DNA of 64,000 nt from NCBI GenBank assembly GCA_905206805.1, contig CAJLIR010000002.1:26999-90998 (forward strand), read 5' to 3'. The position numbers and the translations under genes are program-made. The DNA is from an uncultured Bacillales bacterium (GTDB lineage: Bacteria > Bacillota_I > Bacilli_A > RF39 > UBA660). The notes under the pieces were generated by a model. The model ran no database searches. It was not told the DNA's origin and saw nothing but the letters and a program-made list of their open reading frames with translations. Below are positions 29,158 to 41,741 of the stretch, piece after piece (position 1 is the stretch's first letter; every line of letters begins with the position of its first letter).

Positions 29158-29913
29158 ATGATAATGAAATTAAATATTAATGATAGAACAGCACTAGCTA
29201 TCAAAAATAATACTAAAAGAGTAGAGATTAGAGCAAATAAAGAAAATAGTGAGCATGATTATGGCAAGTTAAGACAAAACGATATTATAGAATTTACTAG
29301 TAATAATTTAGGTGTATTTTATGTTAAAGTTAAAGAGATAAATCATTATAATTCATTAGAAGAACTTTTTACTTTAGAAGGTACAAGATATACAACTTCA
29401 TCTACTAATGATAAAGAAGAAGCAATTAGAAATATTAGTAAACTTGATGGATATCAAGATGCTATTAAGAAAAATGGTGTATACGCTATTCATATAGAAT
29501 ACTTATATAGTGAAAATACTGCTTGGGAAGAATTATATGAAAAGGCAAAGAGTGTTAGAAATCCAAGAAATGTATCAGGTATGATTAGTGCAGGACAAGT
29601 TGGCGCAGCAATATTAACTAAAAATCATAATATTTATACTGGAGTATGTATTGATACAGCTTCAACACTTGGTATGTGTGGAGAGCGAAATGCTATTGCC
29701 AATATGATTACAAATGGAGAAAATGAGATTATTAAACTAGTATGCGTTGATTCTAAAGGTAATGTAGGTTCACCGTGTGGGGCATGTAGAGAATATATGA
29801 TGCAACTTTCTAAGAATAGTAAGGATATTGAGATACTAAAAAATATTGATACTAAAGAAATAGTGAGATTAGAAGAATTAATTCCTGATTGGTGGGGTAA
29901 GACACGTGTATAA
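29158..29913 (+). CDS. ASCH domain fused to cytidine/blasticidin-S deaminase-family domain
   Basis: N-terminal PUA-like ASCH pattern (IKNNTKRVEIR). C-terminal MCGERNAI (CxE) and SPCGACREYM (PCxxC) zinc motifs. ELIPDWWG tail as in small tetrameric CDA/BSD enzymes. Confidence 0.7.
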   Translation: MIMKLNINDRTALAIKNNTKRVEIRANKENSEHDYGKLRQNDIIEFTSNNLGVFYVKVKEINHYNSLEELFTLEGTRYTTSSTNDKEEAIRNISKLDGYQDAIKKNGVYAIHIEYLYSENTAWEELYEKAKSVRNPRNVSGMISAGQVGAAILTKNHNIYTGVCIDTASTLGMCGERNAIANMITNGENEIIKLVCVDSKGNVGSPCGACREYMMQLSKNSKDIEILKNIDTKEIVRLEELIPDWWGKTRV

Positions 29914-29925
29914 TAAACTTAAAAG

Positions 29926-30270
29926 ATGACATTTAGGATAGATGCAGATAAATTAGTTGTTCTTGTTTTAAACGGTAAGAAGACAGCAACAACATCTTTG
30001 TATGAATTTGATAGTTTACCTATAGTAGGTGATGTATCTATACTTACTGATTCAAATAATAATGATATGTGTATATTAGAAACAAAAGAAGTTATTGTAA
30101 CTGAATTTAAGAATATTACTTGGGATTTAGCAAAATTAGAAGGAGAAAATAAATCTTTAGAAGAATGGATAAAAGTTCATATAGATTACTTTAGTAAAAT
30201 AAATACTAATTTTAATGATAATACTAAAGTAATATTTGAAATATTTGAAGTAATAGAAAAATTTAAGTAG
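29926..30270 (+). CDS. ASCH domain protein (YqfB-like)
   Basis: VLNGKKTATTS motif and about 114 aa, typical of stand-alone ASCH proteins. Confidence 0.65.
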   Translation: MTFRIDADKLVVLVLNGKKTATTSLYEFDSLPIVGDVSILTDSNNNDMCILETKEVIVTEFKNITWDLAKLEGENKSLEEWIKVHIDYFSKINTNFNDNTKVIFEIFEVIEKFK

Positions 30271-30285
30271 AAAGGAGAGACAAAC

Positions 30286-30828
30286 ATGAAGATATTATTT
30301 ATATCAGATATACATGGTATTAATATTAATTTAAAAAAAATAGAAAAAGTTATTGAAAAAGAAAAAATAGATAAATTAGTAGTTCTTGGTGATTTATATT
30401 ATGCCGGTCCTACGTATAATCAAAAGTATGAAGTTAATAGTATGAATGTTAAAGATACATTAACTAAATATTCAGATAAAATTATTTGTTTAAAAGGTAA
30501 TTGTGATTCAGACGTTGATATTAAAGCAAGTGATTTTCCAATTTGTAATAATTTAGCTTTAATATGTGTAGATGGGTTAGATATTTATTTAACTCATGGT
30601 AATGAATATAATTTAGAAAAGAATAGAAAATTTAACAGAAAAGGTATATTGGTATATGGTCATGAACACATACCTTATATAAAAAAAGAAAAAGATATGG
30701 TATATATCAATGTTGGTTCAATATCTATACCTAAAGAAAACAATAATCCTACATATATGATGTATGAAAATAGAAAATTTACTATTTATGATATAGAAGA
30801 AAATATATTTGATAGTATAGAAATATAA
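30286..30828 (+). CDS. Metallophosphoesterase, YfcE/MJ0936 family
   Basis: SDIHG, GDLYY, GNCD, THGN, and GHEH motifs in canonical order. Confidence 0.8.
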   Translation: MKILFISDIHGININLKKIEKVIEKEKIDKLVVLGDLYYAGPTYNQKYEVNSMNVKDTLTKYSDKIICLKGNCDSDVDIKASDFPICNNLALICVDGLDIYLTHGNEYNLEKNRKFNRKGILVYGHEHIPYIKKEKDMVYINVGSISIPKENNNPTYMMYENRKFTIYDIEENIFDSIEI

Positions 30829-39195: not shown

Positions 39196-39219
39196 TTCTA
39201 TCTAACAGGGGGAAAAATA

Positions 39220-41187
39220 ATGAGATTTGTTAAATTAGATACTAATGATAAAAATTATTTTAACAATATTAACAAAATTTTTTTAGAAGATGAAACAAGT
39301 GTTATTGTCTTATGTAATAATTCTTATATAACTTATCATTCTTATATTGATTCAGTTAAAGTTGGCTATAATCCAATAATAGAAGAAGATAAGTTGCAAC
39401 AAGATATTAAAGAAATAGAAAATGTTTGGAGTAATAATACTTATATAGATAAACATAGATGGAATTATTTATACAAAGATAATGACAAAGTAATTGATTA
39501 TTTAAGAAGTTTAAATCTCAAAAAAATATACATTACTGGTGAATTATCTAATATTTTATATAGTTATATTAATGTATATGGTAACGATTTTGAGGTAGAA
39601 GTAATTGATTATGATTTAGATATAGTAAAAAAATTAATCGATAATAATGAAATAGTATTAGATACTTGTTTAAATGGATTAAAACTCAAAGAAATACTAT
39701 TTAATAAAAATTTAATAAGTTTAACTAAATTATGTGAAAATGTTGAATATTACTATTTTGTTAAAAAATTATCTAAAAAACTTGATATAACAGTATTTGA
39801 ATTTCCTAGTACTGATGACATAACATCTTTTAGTTTAGAAGAAAGAAAGAGATTAGATAGTAAAATAGGATATATATATTATTTAAGTAAATACAATATA
39901 GACGAAGAAATTACTAAATTATTAAATAGTATTTATGGTGAAAGTTTTATGACAAAATTTTGTGGTTTAGAAAATATTTCTCCTGGTACCATAATACAAA
40001 ATGGAATATGTAGATTAGCTGATTCAAATAATGAATTTTGTAGAACTATCAATGGTAAAAGAGTTACAACAGATAAAAATAGAGATTATGCTTTTGATAT
40101 TAATTTTTTAGGTCCTTGTATGGTATATGGAGTTTTAGTAGATGACAAAAACACTATTCCTAGTTGTTTGCAAAGAATAATAAATGAAAATAATAGAGAT
40201 TATTCTGTTAATAATTATGGATTAAGAGCTATGGAATTTTTTGAACAAGTAAGAATAGCTGATAATATCAATAGTAAACTTAATGATAAATTTATATTTA
40301 TAGTATCTAAGAAAGAAAATGAAGTATTAAAAAGTATGGGATATAATAGTGCTATATCACTTCTTGAATTATATAATTCAGGAGTATTAAAAAATTACTT
40401 TATAGATAAACCGGCACATTGTAATAGTGAAGCTAATGACATGATAGCACGTTTTATTTATGAAAAAATTGAAAAAGAATTAAAGACTGTTGATTCTATT
40501 AATCATACTTTAGCAATAGCTATTCCTAATACTAAAAAAAGAAATATATTTGGTAACAATAGATATTTGAATGAATATTTAGAATTTCTTAAGGGTTTAA
40601 ATATTAATACTAGCAATAATGGTGCAATACTTATGAATTGTAATCCATTTACTTATGGTCATTATAAACTGATAGACTATGCTAGAAAAGAAGTTAATAC
40701 TTTAATTGTAATGGTTGTACAAGAAGATAAATCAAAATATTCTTTTAAAGATAGATATGAAATGGTTAAAGAAGGCTGTAAAGACTTTGAAAATGTAGTA
40801 GTAATACCAAGTGGTAAGATATTTGGTTCATCAATGATATTTCCTGAGTATTTTAATAGAAGTGAATCAACTGATGTATCTCTTGATTTATCAATAGATC
40901 AAGAAATATTTACTCAATATATAGCACCAGTCTTAAATATAAAAAAAAGATTTGTTGGTCAAGAACAAAATGACTACATAACTAGAGAATATAATAAAGA
41001 ACTTAAAAGAAATTTACCACTATATGGAATTGAATTAATAGAAATACCTAGATTTAGAAATATAAATGGTGATGAAATAAGCGCTAAGACAGTAAGAAGA
41101 GCAGTTGAAGAAAATGATGATGAATTGCTTGAAATATTAGTTCCTGAATCTACTTTAAGATTGATAAAAACTAGAAAAATGAAATAA
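39220..41187 (+). CDS. Large protein with C-terminal citrate-lyase-ligase (CitC)-like adenylyltransferase domain; N-terminal ~430 aa unknown
   Basis: NCNPFTYGHYKLIDYA (HxGH-type), FTQYIAPVLNIKKRFVGQEQNDYITREYN, and ISAKTVRRAVEEND follow the E. coli CitC C-terminal domain as I recall it. Confidence 0.6.
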   Translation: MRFVKLDTNDKNYFNNINKIFLEDETSVIVLCNNSYITYHSYIDSVKVGYNPIIEEDKLQQDIKEIENVWSNNTYIDKHRWNYLYKDNDKVIDYLRSLNLKKIYITGELSNILYSYINVYGNDFEVEVIDYDLDIVKKLIDNNEIVLDTCLNGLKLKEILFNKNLISLTKLCENVEYYYFVKKLSKKLDITVFEFPSTDDITSFSLEERKRLDSKIGYIYYLSKYNIDEEITKLLNSIYGESFMTKFCGLENISPGTIIQNGICRLADSNNEFCRTINGKRVTTDKNRDYAFDINFLGPCMVYGVLVDDKNTIPSCLQRIINENNRDYSVNNYGLRAMEFFEQVRIADNINSKLNDKFIFIVSKKENEVLKSMGYNSAISLLELYNSGVLKNYFIDKPAHCNSEANDMIARFIYEKIEKELKTVDSINHTLAIAIPNTKKRNIFGNNRYLNEYLEFLKGLNINTSNNGAILMNCNPFTYGHYKLIDYARKEVNTLIVMVVQEDKSKYSFKDRYEMVKEGCKDFENVVVIPSGKIFGSSMIFPEYFNRSESTDVSLDLSIDQEIFTQYIAPVLNIKKRFVGQEQNDYITREYNKELKRNLPLYGIELIEIPRFRNINGDEISAKTVRRAVEENDDELLEILVPESTLRLIKTRKMK

Positions 41188-41345
41188 ATCTCATTTTTGG
41201 CACTTTAATAACTAGTCTTTTTATGTTATATTTATAATGATGATAATAGAGCTTTTTATTTATAGAAATAAAAACAACAAATTTATAATTAACGATGATT
41301 TATTGAAAATATATGATGTAATTAAAAATAAATGGGAGGTTTTGT

Positions 41346-41741
41346 ATGAATACAAAAATTGTTTTGACTGGAATTTTGAAATCTAATGATGAATTTTTGG
41401 TAGTTAAAAGAAGTGAAAATGATGATTTATATCCAGGAGCATGGGAATTTCCTGGAGGCCACCTAGAAAGTGGTGAAACTTTAAAAGAAGGTTTAAAAAG
41501 AGAATTATTTGAGGAAATTGGGTTTAGTTCAGAATTTGAGCCAATTATTACACATTATTATGATGAAGTAAAAAATAAAAATGATGAATTGATTCATGAT
41601 TTAGAAATTGATTTTATTATTAATGTTAATAAATCAGATGTTAATGTTATATTAAGTGATGAACATTGTGATTATAAATGGGTAAAAAAGGATTCTTATT
41701 TGTTGGATGAATATATTAAAGATAAATTATCAAACATATAA
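41346..41741 (+). CDS. NUDIX hydrolase (MutT-like)
   Basis: WEFPGGHLESGETLKEGLKRELFEEIG Nudix box. Confidence 0.85.
   Translation: MNTKIVLTGILKSNDEFLVVKRSENDDLYPGAWEFPGGHLESGETLKEGLKRELFEEIGFSSEFEPIITHYYDEVKNKNDELIHDLEIDFIINVNKSDVNVILSDEHCDYKWVKKDSYLLDEYIKDKLSNI

Follow-up and report, generated by a model that had tools for sequence, protein, structure and literature searches.

A conserved nine-gene cassette with a MazG-like radical-SAM protein, carried by a serine-integrase element that splits spoVD in an uncultured gut bacterium

The window analyzed here is a stretch of 64,000 nucleotides, with a G+C content of about 24%, from an uncultured gut bacterium of the Bacillales (GenBank assembly GCA_905206805.1, contig CAJLIR010000002.1, positions 26,999 to 90,998), and it contains a 16,870-bp element with a large serine integrase that splits the sporulation gene spoVD. 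The cargo of this element (positions 29158–41741 of the window) is a run of 16 tightly packed genes with almost no spacing, 15 on the plus strand and one on the minus strand (37098–37577); an initial annotation of the same DNA had placed the block and its packing correctly and had counted sixteen plus-strand genes and one minus-strand gene. The cargo consists of two modules, a nine-gene cassette (32452–41187) and a non-conserved remainder formed by the six genes to the left of the cassette and the NUDIX gene to its right. The cassette (about 32452–41187) is a discrete, horizontally mobile unit under purifying selection. As a system, it is conserved and uncharacterized; its proteins come from known enzyme superfamilies and from two "dark" families, and its carrier is of a known class. 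The reading that we favor, with a probability of roughly 0.4, is that the cassette encodes a cytoplasmic pathway for nucleotide-sugar tailoring and glycosyl transfer.

Conservation and genomic settings of the cassette

For the census of the cassette, one genome per GTDB species was scanned, followed by blastp and hidden Markov model (HMM) mapping. A search with the 557-residue product of the second cassette gene, in which a MazG-like domain is fused to a radical S-adenosylmethionine (SAM) domain, returned about 60 full-length relatives, and their contexts show a single fixed cassette order: a family 2 glycosyltransferase (GT2), the MazG-like::radical-SAM protein, a nucleotidyltransferase, a NUDIX hydrolase, an orphan protein of 332–428 residues, a kinase encoded on the opposite strand, a metallophosphoesterase, an α/β hydrolase, and a CitC-like protein. 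The full cassette is present in more than 10 species-level genomes of uncultured gut "Bacilli"; the same order of nine genes is seen in the loci that we number L003–L014, L018, and L047–L054, and copies with as little as about 65% nucleotide identity still have it. When loci are compared, homology at the nucleotide level sets in about 30–50 bp ahead of the GT2 start and ends just past the CitC-like gene; the flanks are unrelated. For all 11 genes common to the window and L047 (83% nucleotide identity), dN/dS lies between 0.07 and 0.30. A word-indexed search with the 332-residue orphan protein found 20 relatives, all of its own family, and wherever the context of one was read it proved to be a cassette; for the CitC-like protein there are 43 close relatives, and several of these trace to cassette loci. 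Together, the sharp common borders, the purifying selection, and an orphan family that lies in cassettes wherever context was read establish the cassette as a discrete unit.

The left six genes (29158–32326) and the last NUDIX gene (41346–41741) are not syntenic elsewhere, and only the pair of GNAT acetyltransferases recurs, in L047. The initial annotation had treated all 16 genes as one system and had named conservation of the neighborhood as the check on that view. Fixed order in other genomes, both with and without the recombinase, was found for 32452–41187; the genes on either side of it (six on the left, one NUDIX gene on the right) are not conserved with the cassette, and the single-system view is not supported.

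The cassette occurs in diverse genomic settings. In the window, it lies inside the spoVD element. In L047, the cassette and the GNAT pair are accompanied by a 45%-identical serine recombinase and split a gene for a PBP5-type DD-carboxypeptidase at its SxN motif, between SGN and D (fragments at 4260–4643 and 17120–17896). In L048, the cassette and two serine recombinases split yabG (5105–5407 and 18975–19439), and the joined protein passes the TIGR02855 cut-off; in Bacillus subtilis, spoVD and yabG are both mother-cell genes. Three spore-envelope-related genes are therefore split by cassette-bearing serine-recombinase elements, namely spoVD, yabG, and the DD-carboxypeptidase gene of L047, the last of which may or may not have a link to sporulation. 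A truncated recombinase follows the cassette in L053/L054, and in L003 the cassette adjoins conjugation genes of the VirD4/TrbL/PrgI/VirB4 type. L049 and L050 are ordinary chromosome; the cassettes of L050 and L014 come directly after spoVE, and cotH is near the cassette in L050. A small Cys-rich open reading frame (ORF) upstream of the cassette in L053 (8830–9027), which resembles the N terminus of CotD, was considered as a fourth interrupted spore gene; this idea was dropped, because a 3′ fragment to match it was not found and the recombinase at this locus is truncated.

The L014 locus separates the cassette from this kind of carrier. A sister element (356–5167), with an integrase 72% identical to that of the window, splits spoVD there, and its cargo, placed immediately before the integrase gene, includes AbiGI and AbiGII, an abortive-infection pair (PDB 9hlo, E = 5e-44 and 1e-56). 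The L014 cassette is outside this element: it comes after spoVD-mraY-x-spoVE and has a further recombinase-like ORF behind it. A sister spoVD element with AbiG cargo and a cassette located elsewhere indicate that cassette and carrier assort independently; insertion into sporulation genes is a trait of the carrier elements. The sister element also contains an α/β-hydrolase-like ORF of 253 residues, and no cassette lies inside it.

Cassette proteins and their relatives

The 557-residue protein (33311–34984, plus strand) carries an invariant CxxxCxxC motif, C209/C213/C216, which is retained in 25 homologues along with four invariant C-terminal cysteines; PF04055 scores 24.6 bits, below its cut-off of 29.5. 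Distant relatives of the radical-SAM part bear the label "DNA repair photolyase", which we take to mean the SplB type (COG1533). No NCBIfam family matches the protein, spore photoproduct lyase included, and PADLOC gives no hit for it, pVip included; the label on its relatives is likewise not that of a viperin. The initial annotation had described a MazG-radical SAM fusion, of which the radical-SAM half stands and the MazG half is weakly supported by sub-threshold matches on one acidic motif (PDB 5ie9, E = 0.15; PF03819, E = 0.019 and 0.33 for stand-alone versions). Residues E37, E57, D67, E68, and D71 of the MazG-like domain, which is putatively nucleotide-binding, are invariant. In other phyla, the MazG-like N-terminal 190 residues are encoded by an ORF of their own immediately after the radical-SAM gene (L029, L033, L035, L036, and L023), the hosts being Pseudonocardiaceae, Amycolatopsis, two Alphaproteobacteria, and a Clostridiales metagenome-assembled genome (MAG). 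Fusion in the Bacilli and adjacency elsewhere argue that the two parts work together. The arrangement of the two parts differs between lineages by fusion or fission plus a change of order.

The gene that opens the cassette (32425–33309, plus strand, with a probable true start at 32452) encodes a soluble GT2 (PF00535, 86.5 bits) without a transmembrane (TM) segment, whose homologues are 285–286 residues long. The third gene (34993–35700, plus strand) encodes an RfbF-like sugar-1-phosphate nucleotidyltransferase, which scores 238 bits with TIGR02623 and misses the equivalog cut-off of 300; it is a close relative of the glucose-1-phosphate cytidylyltransferase RfbF, with a substrate specificity that is a prediction. 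NUDIX hydrolase 1 (35666–36118, plus strand; PF00293) is the most constant neighbor of the radical-SAM gene. The kinase (37098–37577, minus strand), convergent with the orphan gene, is a P-loop enzyme of the dNK/Tmk-like kind (AAA_18, AAA_28, and dNK of Pfam; phrog_761 "thymidylate kinase", 4e-13). It is followed by metallophosphoesterase 2 (37640–38452, plus strand; PF00149) and by an α/β hydrolase (38437–39195, plus strand; PF12146 and PF00561), which is fused to NUDIX in a variant cassette. No TM segment is predicted in any cargo protein, the maximum 19-residue hydropathy being below 1.6, whereas the SpoVD anchor, the control, reaches 3.1.

The final cassette gene (39220–41187, plus strand) encodes the 655-residue CitC-like protein. 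Its C-terminal 180 residues are a citrate-lyase-ligase-type HIGH nucleotidyltransferase domain (PF08218, 176 bits); TIGR00124 scores 155 bits against a cut-off of 262 and matches this domain alone. In the AlphaFold2 model (pLDDT 88), the C-terminal domain adopts the PPAT/NMNAT fold (Foldseek, E about 2e-6). The N-terminal ∼450 residues are without assignment, and a relaxed-E Pfam search together with a whole-model Foldseek search of this region recovered only the C-terminal nucleotidyltransferase fold. No citrate lyase families were reported among the element ORFs scanned, which are those of at least about 100 residues plus one of 68 residues. More than 528 metagenomic relatives have the middle and C-terminal domains of the CitC-like protein. 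At the distant loci, a GT2 gene lies within 10 kb in 22 of the 79 kept, and GT2 genes number 3.7 per 100 kb versus 0.5 in control flanks, and no radical-SAM gene is present. The literature searched yielded nothing on CitC-like genes in polysaccharide clusters. The middle domain by itself (39220–40600; motif FGPCxVYG...TIPSxLQ...HCN) is widespread in GT2-rich metagenomic loci, and in one protein (P0170) it is fused to a HAD phosphatase and an iron-containing alcohol-dehydrogenase domain (Fe-ADH_2, PF13685). Profile matches and the invariant CxxxCxxC thus uphold the initial calls of a radical-SAM enzyme, a sugar nucleotidyltransferase, two NUDIX hydrolases, a Tmk-like kinase, a second metallophosphoesterase, an α/β hydrolase, and a CitC-like ligase, and the cargo is, as had been proposed, a set of nucleotide- and sugar-nucleotide-handling enzymes.

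A full HMMER scan of 1.84 billion representatives places the orphan protein (332 residues; 36120–37118, plus strand) in a superfamily without a Pfam assignment that numbers 304 clusters at 50% identity (E ≤ 1e-3); no Pfam domain was detected in the ten long superfamily members tested (650–1250 residues). The superfamily conserves the motifs GYxFHGF and TDxxxAxYYxxxSP (P0175–P0318). The AlphaFold2 model has a pLDDT of 87, with best Foldseek E-values above 0.3, and neither phmmer and two profiles against the PDB nor Foldseek against the PDB and BFVD linked the protein to a known family. The initial annotation had seen H-Y-E motifs of the diphtheria toxin/PARP kind. PARP10, DarT1, phage PARP, and phage DarT do appear in the Foldseek lists, at a probability of 0.33 or less, far under the threshold; H126 and E302 are invariant within the cassette subfamily only and are not among the columns that are at least 90% conserved in 59 superfamily members. 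No sequence or fold match reached significance, and the call of an ADP-ribosyltransferase-like protein is not supported, nor is the emphasis that had been placed on NAD and ADP-ribosyl transfer.

The conserved heart of the cassette, the trio of radical-SAM enzyme, nucleotidyltransferase, and NUDIX hydrolase, occurs alone in L044, L015, and L055/L056; the protein P0018 of L055/L056 is found in 74 blocks of the sequence collection, the most of any relative looked up. Trio loci have a 357-residue protein in the place of the GT2, which by hhalign is unrelated to the orphan or the CitC-like protein. A variant cassette comprises HAD, GT2, radical SAM, a hexapeptide acyltransferase, two further GT2s, a NUDIX::hydrolase fusion, a nucleotidyltransferase, and a CitC-like gene. 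On pFRL6, a plasmid of Streptomyces sp. F12 (L057, 67298–76690), a radical-SAM homologue lies beside Tra genes in a run of nucleotide and sugar genes, consisting of MazG, a helix-turn-helix (HTH) protein, two dCTP-deaminase-like proteins, cytidine deaminase, a SAM methyltransferase, UTP-glucose-1-phosphate uridylyltransferase, radical SAM, a glycosyltransferase, and HAD. The parallel to the gene set of the window, from a different phylum, is striking. Elsewhere among Streptomyces plasmids, the radical-SAM homologue follows MurA, near a GT4 and a class II aldolase, and in Streptomyces Tu6071 it follows three Mur-ligase paralogues; the similarity of the Streptomyces radical-SAM proteins to that of the window is 31–35%. 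What the members of the radical-SAM family have in common is a neighbor that produces or consumes a UDP- or CDP-sugar, in many cases with a glycosyltransferase alongside. Neither the trio of radical SAM, RfbF, and NUDIX nor MazG-radical-SAM fusions were found in the literature searched.

The spoVD element, its left module, and the leaders

The spoVD 5′ fragment (27457–28700, plus strand, in an ORF at 27457–28713) covers positions 3–413 of the 636 of TIGR02214, the first two-thirds of SpoVD, and is closed by the attL core ATACA (28696–28700). The attR core ATACA (45566–45570) marks the start of the 3′ fragment, which runs on the plus strand to 46231 and contains the ORF for the end of SpoVD (45842–46231). 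Joining the two halves across the 5-bp ATACA yields an in-frame SpoVD of 634 residues, which includes the stretch VTPIQQITAVSAAINGG and scores 739.9 bits with TIGR02214 (cut-off 688); attB as rejoined would read GTGACACCTATACAACAAATAACTGCT. The two cores and the restoration of SpoVD on joining give the element its length of 16,870 bp, and the att sites of the initial annotation prove to be real.

The identified backbone of the element consists solely of an Arc-like repressor (42242–42550, plus strand; PHROGs), an HTH fragment of a DnaD/replication-initiator N-domain (42544–42873, plus strand; PHROGs), and the large serine integrase (43933–45588, plus strand; PF00239, PF07508, and PF13408; phrog_95, 3e-109), the 3′ end of which crosses attR. 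Two further small ORFs lie on the plus strand, one of 144 residues (43119–43553) and one of 68 residues (43721–43927); the position of the latter, adjoining the recombinase, makes it a possible recombination directionality factor (RDF). Pfam and PHROGs detected no capsid, terminase, tail, lysis, relaxase, or type IV secretion system (T4SS) genes among the element ORFs scanned, in agreement with the initial view that the cargo is neither phage-structural nor conjugative. Among 50,697 phage records, no relative was found when the block was searched by megablast and the radical-SAM protein by tblastn, and a scan of IMG/VR returned no relative of the radical-SAM protein.

A sporulation gene is interrupted, a large serine recombinase stands at one end, and an identical short core is present at both junctions; the carrier belongs to the gene-intervening elements of spore-formers, which include skin, SPβ, gin, and yin (PMC4191935, PMC5595907, PMC10747680). 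The literature searched contains no report of a spoVD-intervening element. A locus of the same species (L005, 97.5% identity) is collinear with the window from 27503, in the spoVD 5′ fragment, through the element. Upstream of spoVD, positions 1–4195 of L005 and 1–27500 of the window share almost no nucleotide similarity, which reflects either a rearrangement beside spoVD or a mis-join in one assembly. Within L005, the nucleotidyltransferase gene is frameshifted (11659–12350) and NUDIX2 is likewise split (18011–18400).

The left module, on the plus strand throughout, begins with an ASCH::cytidine deaminase fusion (29158–29913; NF004064, 81.7 bits against a cut-off of 74; PF00383), in which the zinc-ligand motifs CGE and PCGAC are visible and the ASCH N-domain, weak in Pfam, matches phrog_19935 at 2.8e-9. 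The stand-alone ASCH protein that follows (29926–30270; PF04266, 65.9 bits) has the YqfB-like size, with an ASCH domain of ∼100 residues. Next come a YfcE-family phosphodiesterase (30286–30828; NF006988, 158 bits against a cut-off of 117) and two GNAT acetyltransferases (30843–31466 and 31441–31929; Pfam), for which comparison with the L047 copies gives dN/dS of 0.18 and 0.09. Pfam and NCBIfam matches thus agree with the domain calls made initially for these five genes and for the GT2. The sixth gene (31919–32326) encodes a 135-residue protein for which a Cys-His fold had been suggested; it has no Pfam or NCBIfam match, and phrog_3754 (3.9e-8), a family of unknown function, alone matches it. 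NUDIX hydrolase 2 (41346–41741, plus strand), which is NudI/NudG/MutT-like, lies beyond the conserved cassette and is followed by a terminator (41982–42004). A search of PADLOC-DB v2 with all 20 element proteins gave no system and generic matches only (NUDIX to PDC-S07, GNAT to PDC-M11A, and weak P-loop matches), and no nuclease, TIR, SIR2, pore, or other effector-type protein; the block fits no named system, as the initial annotation had stated.

The first cargo operon is preceded by a σA-like promoter (28957–28985, plus strand; TTTACA-17-TATATT with a TG extension) that is nearly invariant in L047, and by a leader-peptide attenuator (29025–29142, plus strand; fold z-score −4.3). The leader comprises a Shine-Dalgarno sequence, a 21-codon ORF (29025–29090; MKNLQVINNAELITTPNLLNF), and a terminator directly before the ASCH-cytidine deaminase gene. 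Its antiterminator arms (29047–29063 and 29109–29124) and its terminator hairpin (29115–29135), which is followed by a T-run, form mutually exclusive structures; leader codons 8–13 can pair without mismatch with the 5′ arm of the terminator, and the energy of this duplex is −17.5 kcal/mol compared with −11.3 kcal/mol for the terminator. Given that the antiterminator duplex is the stronger of the two, an early ribosome stall in the leader would favor read-through. The leader is almost invariant in L047 (about 4640–4860), where it stands ahead of the GNAT genes.

The left module (29158–32326) and the last NUDIX gene thus form a non-conserved add-on of cytosine-directed and acyl-transfer enzymes. 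The σA-like promoter ahead of it is followed by an attenuator that is predicted to open on ribosome stalling, and a role in salvage, detoxification, or resistance is suggested. N4-acylcytosine amidohydrolase activity has been shown for YqfB and a few relatives (PMC6972931, PMC9599836). Nucleoside-antibiotic resistance, one of the roles put forward initially for the whole block, is plausible for the left module only, with its ASCH and cytidine deaminase domains, its GNATs, and its ribosome-sensing attenuator; it finds no support in the cassette.

The cassette has a leader of its own in the window (32323–32416, plus strand), in which a promoter-like site (TTGATT-17-TAGAAT) is followed by a U-run hairpin (about 32381–32416). 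A perfect TTGACA-17-TATAAT stands upstream of the GT2 gene in L003 and L048, with close matches in L049 and L050, and a U-run hairpin just before the GT2 ribosome-binding site is present in L003, L048, and L049 and is weak in L050. No RNA family was found by Rfam in the element and three related loci, and no riboswitch accounts for the leaders; inspection by eye revealed no σE or σK promoters upstream of the operons. At the level of a consensus prediction, these features point to an expression of the cassette that is vegetative and conditionally attenuated rather than controlled by σE or σK.

A proposed pathway, its alternatives, and related systems

In the pathway that we favor, the RfbF-like nucleotidyltransferase would convert a hexose phosphate into a pyrimidine nucleoside diphosphate (NDP)-hexose, which the MazG-like::radical-SAM enzyme would remodel. 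The GT2 would then move the remodeled sugar to an acceptor at the cytoplasmic side, most plausibly a precursor of a cell-envelope glycopolymer, comparable to the "seroconversion" modules of mobile elements. The CitC-like protein, as an adenylyl- or cytidylyltransferase, may add or activate a further substituent, and the NUDIX hydrolase, metallophosphoesterase, kinase, and α/β hydrolase may trim, recycle, or proofread nucleotide-linked intermediates. The lack of membrane proteins, the variable number of GT2s and acyltransferases, the repeated loss of the nucleotidyltransferase, and the mobility of the cassette are consistent with a mobile module for the decoration of a host glycopolymer on the cytoplasmic side. 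Of the roles considered in the initial annotation, a glycan pathway has the best-supported biochemistry, and its mother-cell, spore-specific version is not supported: the promoters appear to be of the σA type, and some cassettes lie outside sporulation-gene elements.

Several observations weigh against this pathway and against the expression proposed for it. The data show the gene content, the borders of the element, the conservation of the cassette and the purifying selection on it, the solubility of its proteins, and the genomic associations, whereas the substrates, the order of the reactions, the acceptor, and the physiological role are inferred; the radical-SAM family has no characterized member. 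The cassette contains no priming transferase, flippase, polymerase, or exporter, which excludes a classical polysaccharide pathway. A kinase, two phosphoesterases, NUDIX, and the orphan are atypical of glycan loci and would equally fit nucleotide-centered conflict systems. The nucleotidyltransferase gene is apparently frameshifted in L005 and L053/54 and deleted in L011/L049 and L014/L018/L050; either the enzyme is dispensable, or copies without an intact gene are decaying. In the window, the hairpin of the GT2 leader is not significant (z = −0.2), and the promoter and terminator calls are consensus matches in DNA of 24% G+C, in which promoter-like sites are in no excess over shuffles. Some cassette copies are also without the phosphoesterase. 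Cassette-gene losses seen in MAGs could be assembly errors, yet deletions recur.

A different view of the same genes is that the cassette is a new mobile radical-SAM conflict system, which would make a modified pyrimidine nucleotide or nucleotide-sugar for phage defense, for anti-restriction masking of DNA or glycopolymer, or as a nucleoside-type toxin, and which would be carried by serine-integrase elements hidden in spoVD, yabG, and the DD-carboxypeptidase gene and removed only in the terminal mother cell; we regard this broad proposal as somewhat doubtful. A nucleotide-centered anti-phage or conflict system, in which the MazG::radical-SAM enzyme and the kinase make a modified pyrimidine nucleotide by viperin-like logic and NUDIX, phosphoesterases, and deaminase protect the host or reset the pool, is unlikely. 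The cassette is always accessory and often on mobile elements, the sister spoVD element carries AbiGI/AbiGII, NUDIX2 matches the PADLOC candidate family PDC-S07 at 7e-19, and MazG and two dCTP-deaminase-like genes accompany the relative on pFRL6. However, the match to PDC-S07 reflects generic NUDIX similarity, neither a PADLOC system nor any nuclease, TIR, SIR2, pore, or other effector-type protein is present, the radical-SAM enzyme is not viperin-type, no role is left for the GT2 and the sugar nucleotidyltransferase, and the trio also occurs in plain chromosomal contexts. The defense function raised initially is thus without positive evidence beyond the location on a mobile element, although the sister element does carry the AbiG pair. 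Modification or glycosylation of pyrimidines in DNA, for example as an anti-restriction measure in which an SPL-type radical-SAM enzyme acts on DNA bases and the GT2 adds a sugar, is very improbable. It would account for the "DNA repair photolyase" label and for a kinase, MazG-like domain, NUDIX, and cytidine deaminase together with a sugar nucleotidyltransferase and a glycosyltransferase, as in phage hypermodification pathways, and pFRL6 combines two dCTP deaminases and a methyltransferase with adjoining Tra genes, just as L003 adjoins T4SS genes. Against it stand the lack of relatives in phage records or IMG/VR, the lack of a DNA-binding or base-exchange enzyme and of a paired restriction function, the lack of a match to any NCBIfam SPL model, and cassettes in the chromosome without a mobile backbone.

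Biosynthesis of a small molecule derived from a nucleoside or sugar nucleotide, such as an antibiotic or a signal, with the left module providing self-resistance or resistance to cytosine-nucleoside translation inhibitors, is distinctly unlikely. In Streptomyces, the related radical-SAM genes stand with a MurA homologue and with DUF6415 genes labeled "natural product", which recalls NikO/NikJ, the enolpyruvyl transferase and radical-SAM pair of nikkomycin biosynthesis; the left module joins a domain of the N4-acylcytosine-amidohydrolase type (YqfB activity, PMC6972931) with cytidine deaminase, and the attenuator before it is of the type that responds to stalled ribosomes. However, no exporter, obvious scaffold-building enzyme, peptide ligase, or aminotransferase is present, the left module is unlinked to the cassette in most genomes, and the similarity to the Streptomyces radical-SAM proteins is low. 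Mother-cell glycosylation of the spore envelope, resembling that of sps/yfn and functionally tied to the interrupted sporulation gene, is improbable. The three split genes and the cassettes directly after spoVE and near cotH speak for it, as do proteins that are all soluble and would suit the mother-cell cytoplasm; the spore-polysaccharide gene yfnH of B. subtilis, moreover, encodes a glucose-1-phosphate cytidylyltransferase. The promoters, however, look σA-type with leader terminators and no σE or σK consensus was seen by eye, the cassette is also found beside T4SS genes and at unrelated chromosomal sites, and the lifestyle of a carrier that also bears unrelated cargo (AbiG) accounts for the insertion into sporulation genes. 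Finally, that unrelated housekeeping or "house-cleaning" genes have piled up by chance is barely credible: the left six genes and NUDIX2 lack synteny elsewhere and several cassette copies are without the nucleotidyltransferase or the phosphoesterase, as such a view would have it, but for 32452–41187 it is contradicted by the conserved order, the sharp borders, and the purifying selection, by an orphan whose 20 relatives are one family found in cassettes wherever context was read, and by the many close relatives of the CitC-like protein that trace to cassette loci.

With the element described here, spoVD becomes one more of the few sporulation genes known to be interrupted by excisable elements. 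The presence of one cassette in different serine-recombinase elements at different spore-envelope-related genes indicates that such elements are general vehicles for accessory metabolism, beyond decayed prophages. The cassette brings together families without a characterized member, namely an SplB-type radical-SAM enzyme with a MazG-like partner, the "dark" superfamily of the 332-residue protein, and a CitC-like enzyme typical of glycan loci, and the co-occurrence of these genes provides a concrete handle on their chemistry. Should its product change the cell surface or the pool of nucleotides, the cassette would be relevant to the phage-host and antibiotic interactions of gut spore-formers.

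Among known elements, the carrier is reminiscent of gin, which interrupts gerE in Bacillus cereus ATCC 10987 (PMC5595907): both are non-viral, split a sporulation gene, have a large serine recombinase and short overlapping core repeats, and carry a cargo of mostly unknown-function proteins and accessory functions. The two differ in target (gerE versus spoVD), in the number of recombinases (three versus one), and in cargo, which is restriction-modification and recJ in gin and an enzyme cassette here. Like skin, SPβ, and the yin element of Clostridium botulinum yabG (PMC4191935, PMC10747680), the carrier is a serine-recombinase element inside a sporulation gene, which in L048 is also yabG, with a small ORF beside the recombinase, the candidate RDF here. 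Those elements are prophages or their remnants, whereas the element described here has no structural or lysis genes and just an Arc-like repressor and a DnaD-like fragment.

In terms of the cassette, modification of glycopolymers by mobile elements is known from prophage TarP, which acts on the wall teichoic acid of Staphylococcus aureus, and from gtrABC/oac seroconversion. These modules place a GT-A/GT2 enzyme on a mobile element, a feature shared by the TM-less GT2 of the cassette, sometimes with acyltransferases, and the number of both is variable. The TarP and Gtr glycosyltransferases act on host glycopolymer precursors at the cytoplasmic side, and by analogy the cassette may do the same. 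They are modules of 1–3 genes that use common host NDP-sugars, whereas the cassette adds a radical-SAM enzyme, NUDIX, a kinase, a phosphoesterase, a hydrolase, and a CitC-like enzyme. The yfnHGFED and sps genes of B. subtilis likewise combine an enzyme of the glucose-1-phosphate cytidylyltransferase type with soluble GT2s and no flippase; in contrast, the cassette has no CDP-glucose dehydratase/epimerase set and no evident σK or σE promoter, is mobile, and extends beyond sporulation loci. Prokaryotic viperins (pVips) share with the cassette a radical-SAM enzyme, a nucleotide kinase, and a pyrimidine-nucleotide vocabulary on accessory DNA, but in the cassette this enzyme is of the SplB type, is joined to a MazG-like domain, and always has NUDIX, and in most Firmicute loci a GT2, as a companion.

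A further parallel, in mechanism, is the "nucleotide handle" logic of fosfomycin biosynthesis, which employs the cytidylyltransferase Fom1, the radical-SAM enzyme Fom3, and the hydrolase FomD, and of the NikO/NikJ and PolA/PolH pairs. The pairing of a MurA homologue with the radical-SAM gene in Streptomyces relatives is a likeness to NikO/NikJ. The hydrolase here is a NUDIX enzyme, and the analogy is one of mechanism only. With that difference, the fosfomycin-type sequence of steps, in which a nucleotide is attached, the radical-SAM enzyme acts, and a hydrolase removes the handle, could be mapped onto the conserved trio of nucleotidyltransferase, radical-SAM enzyme, and NUDIX hydrolase.

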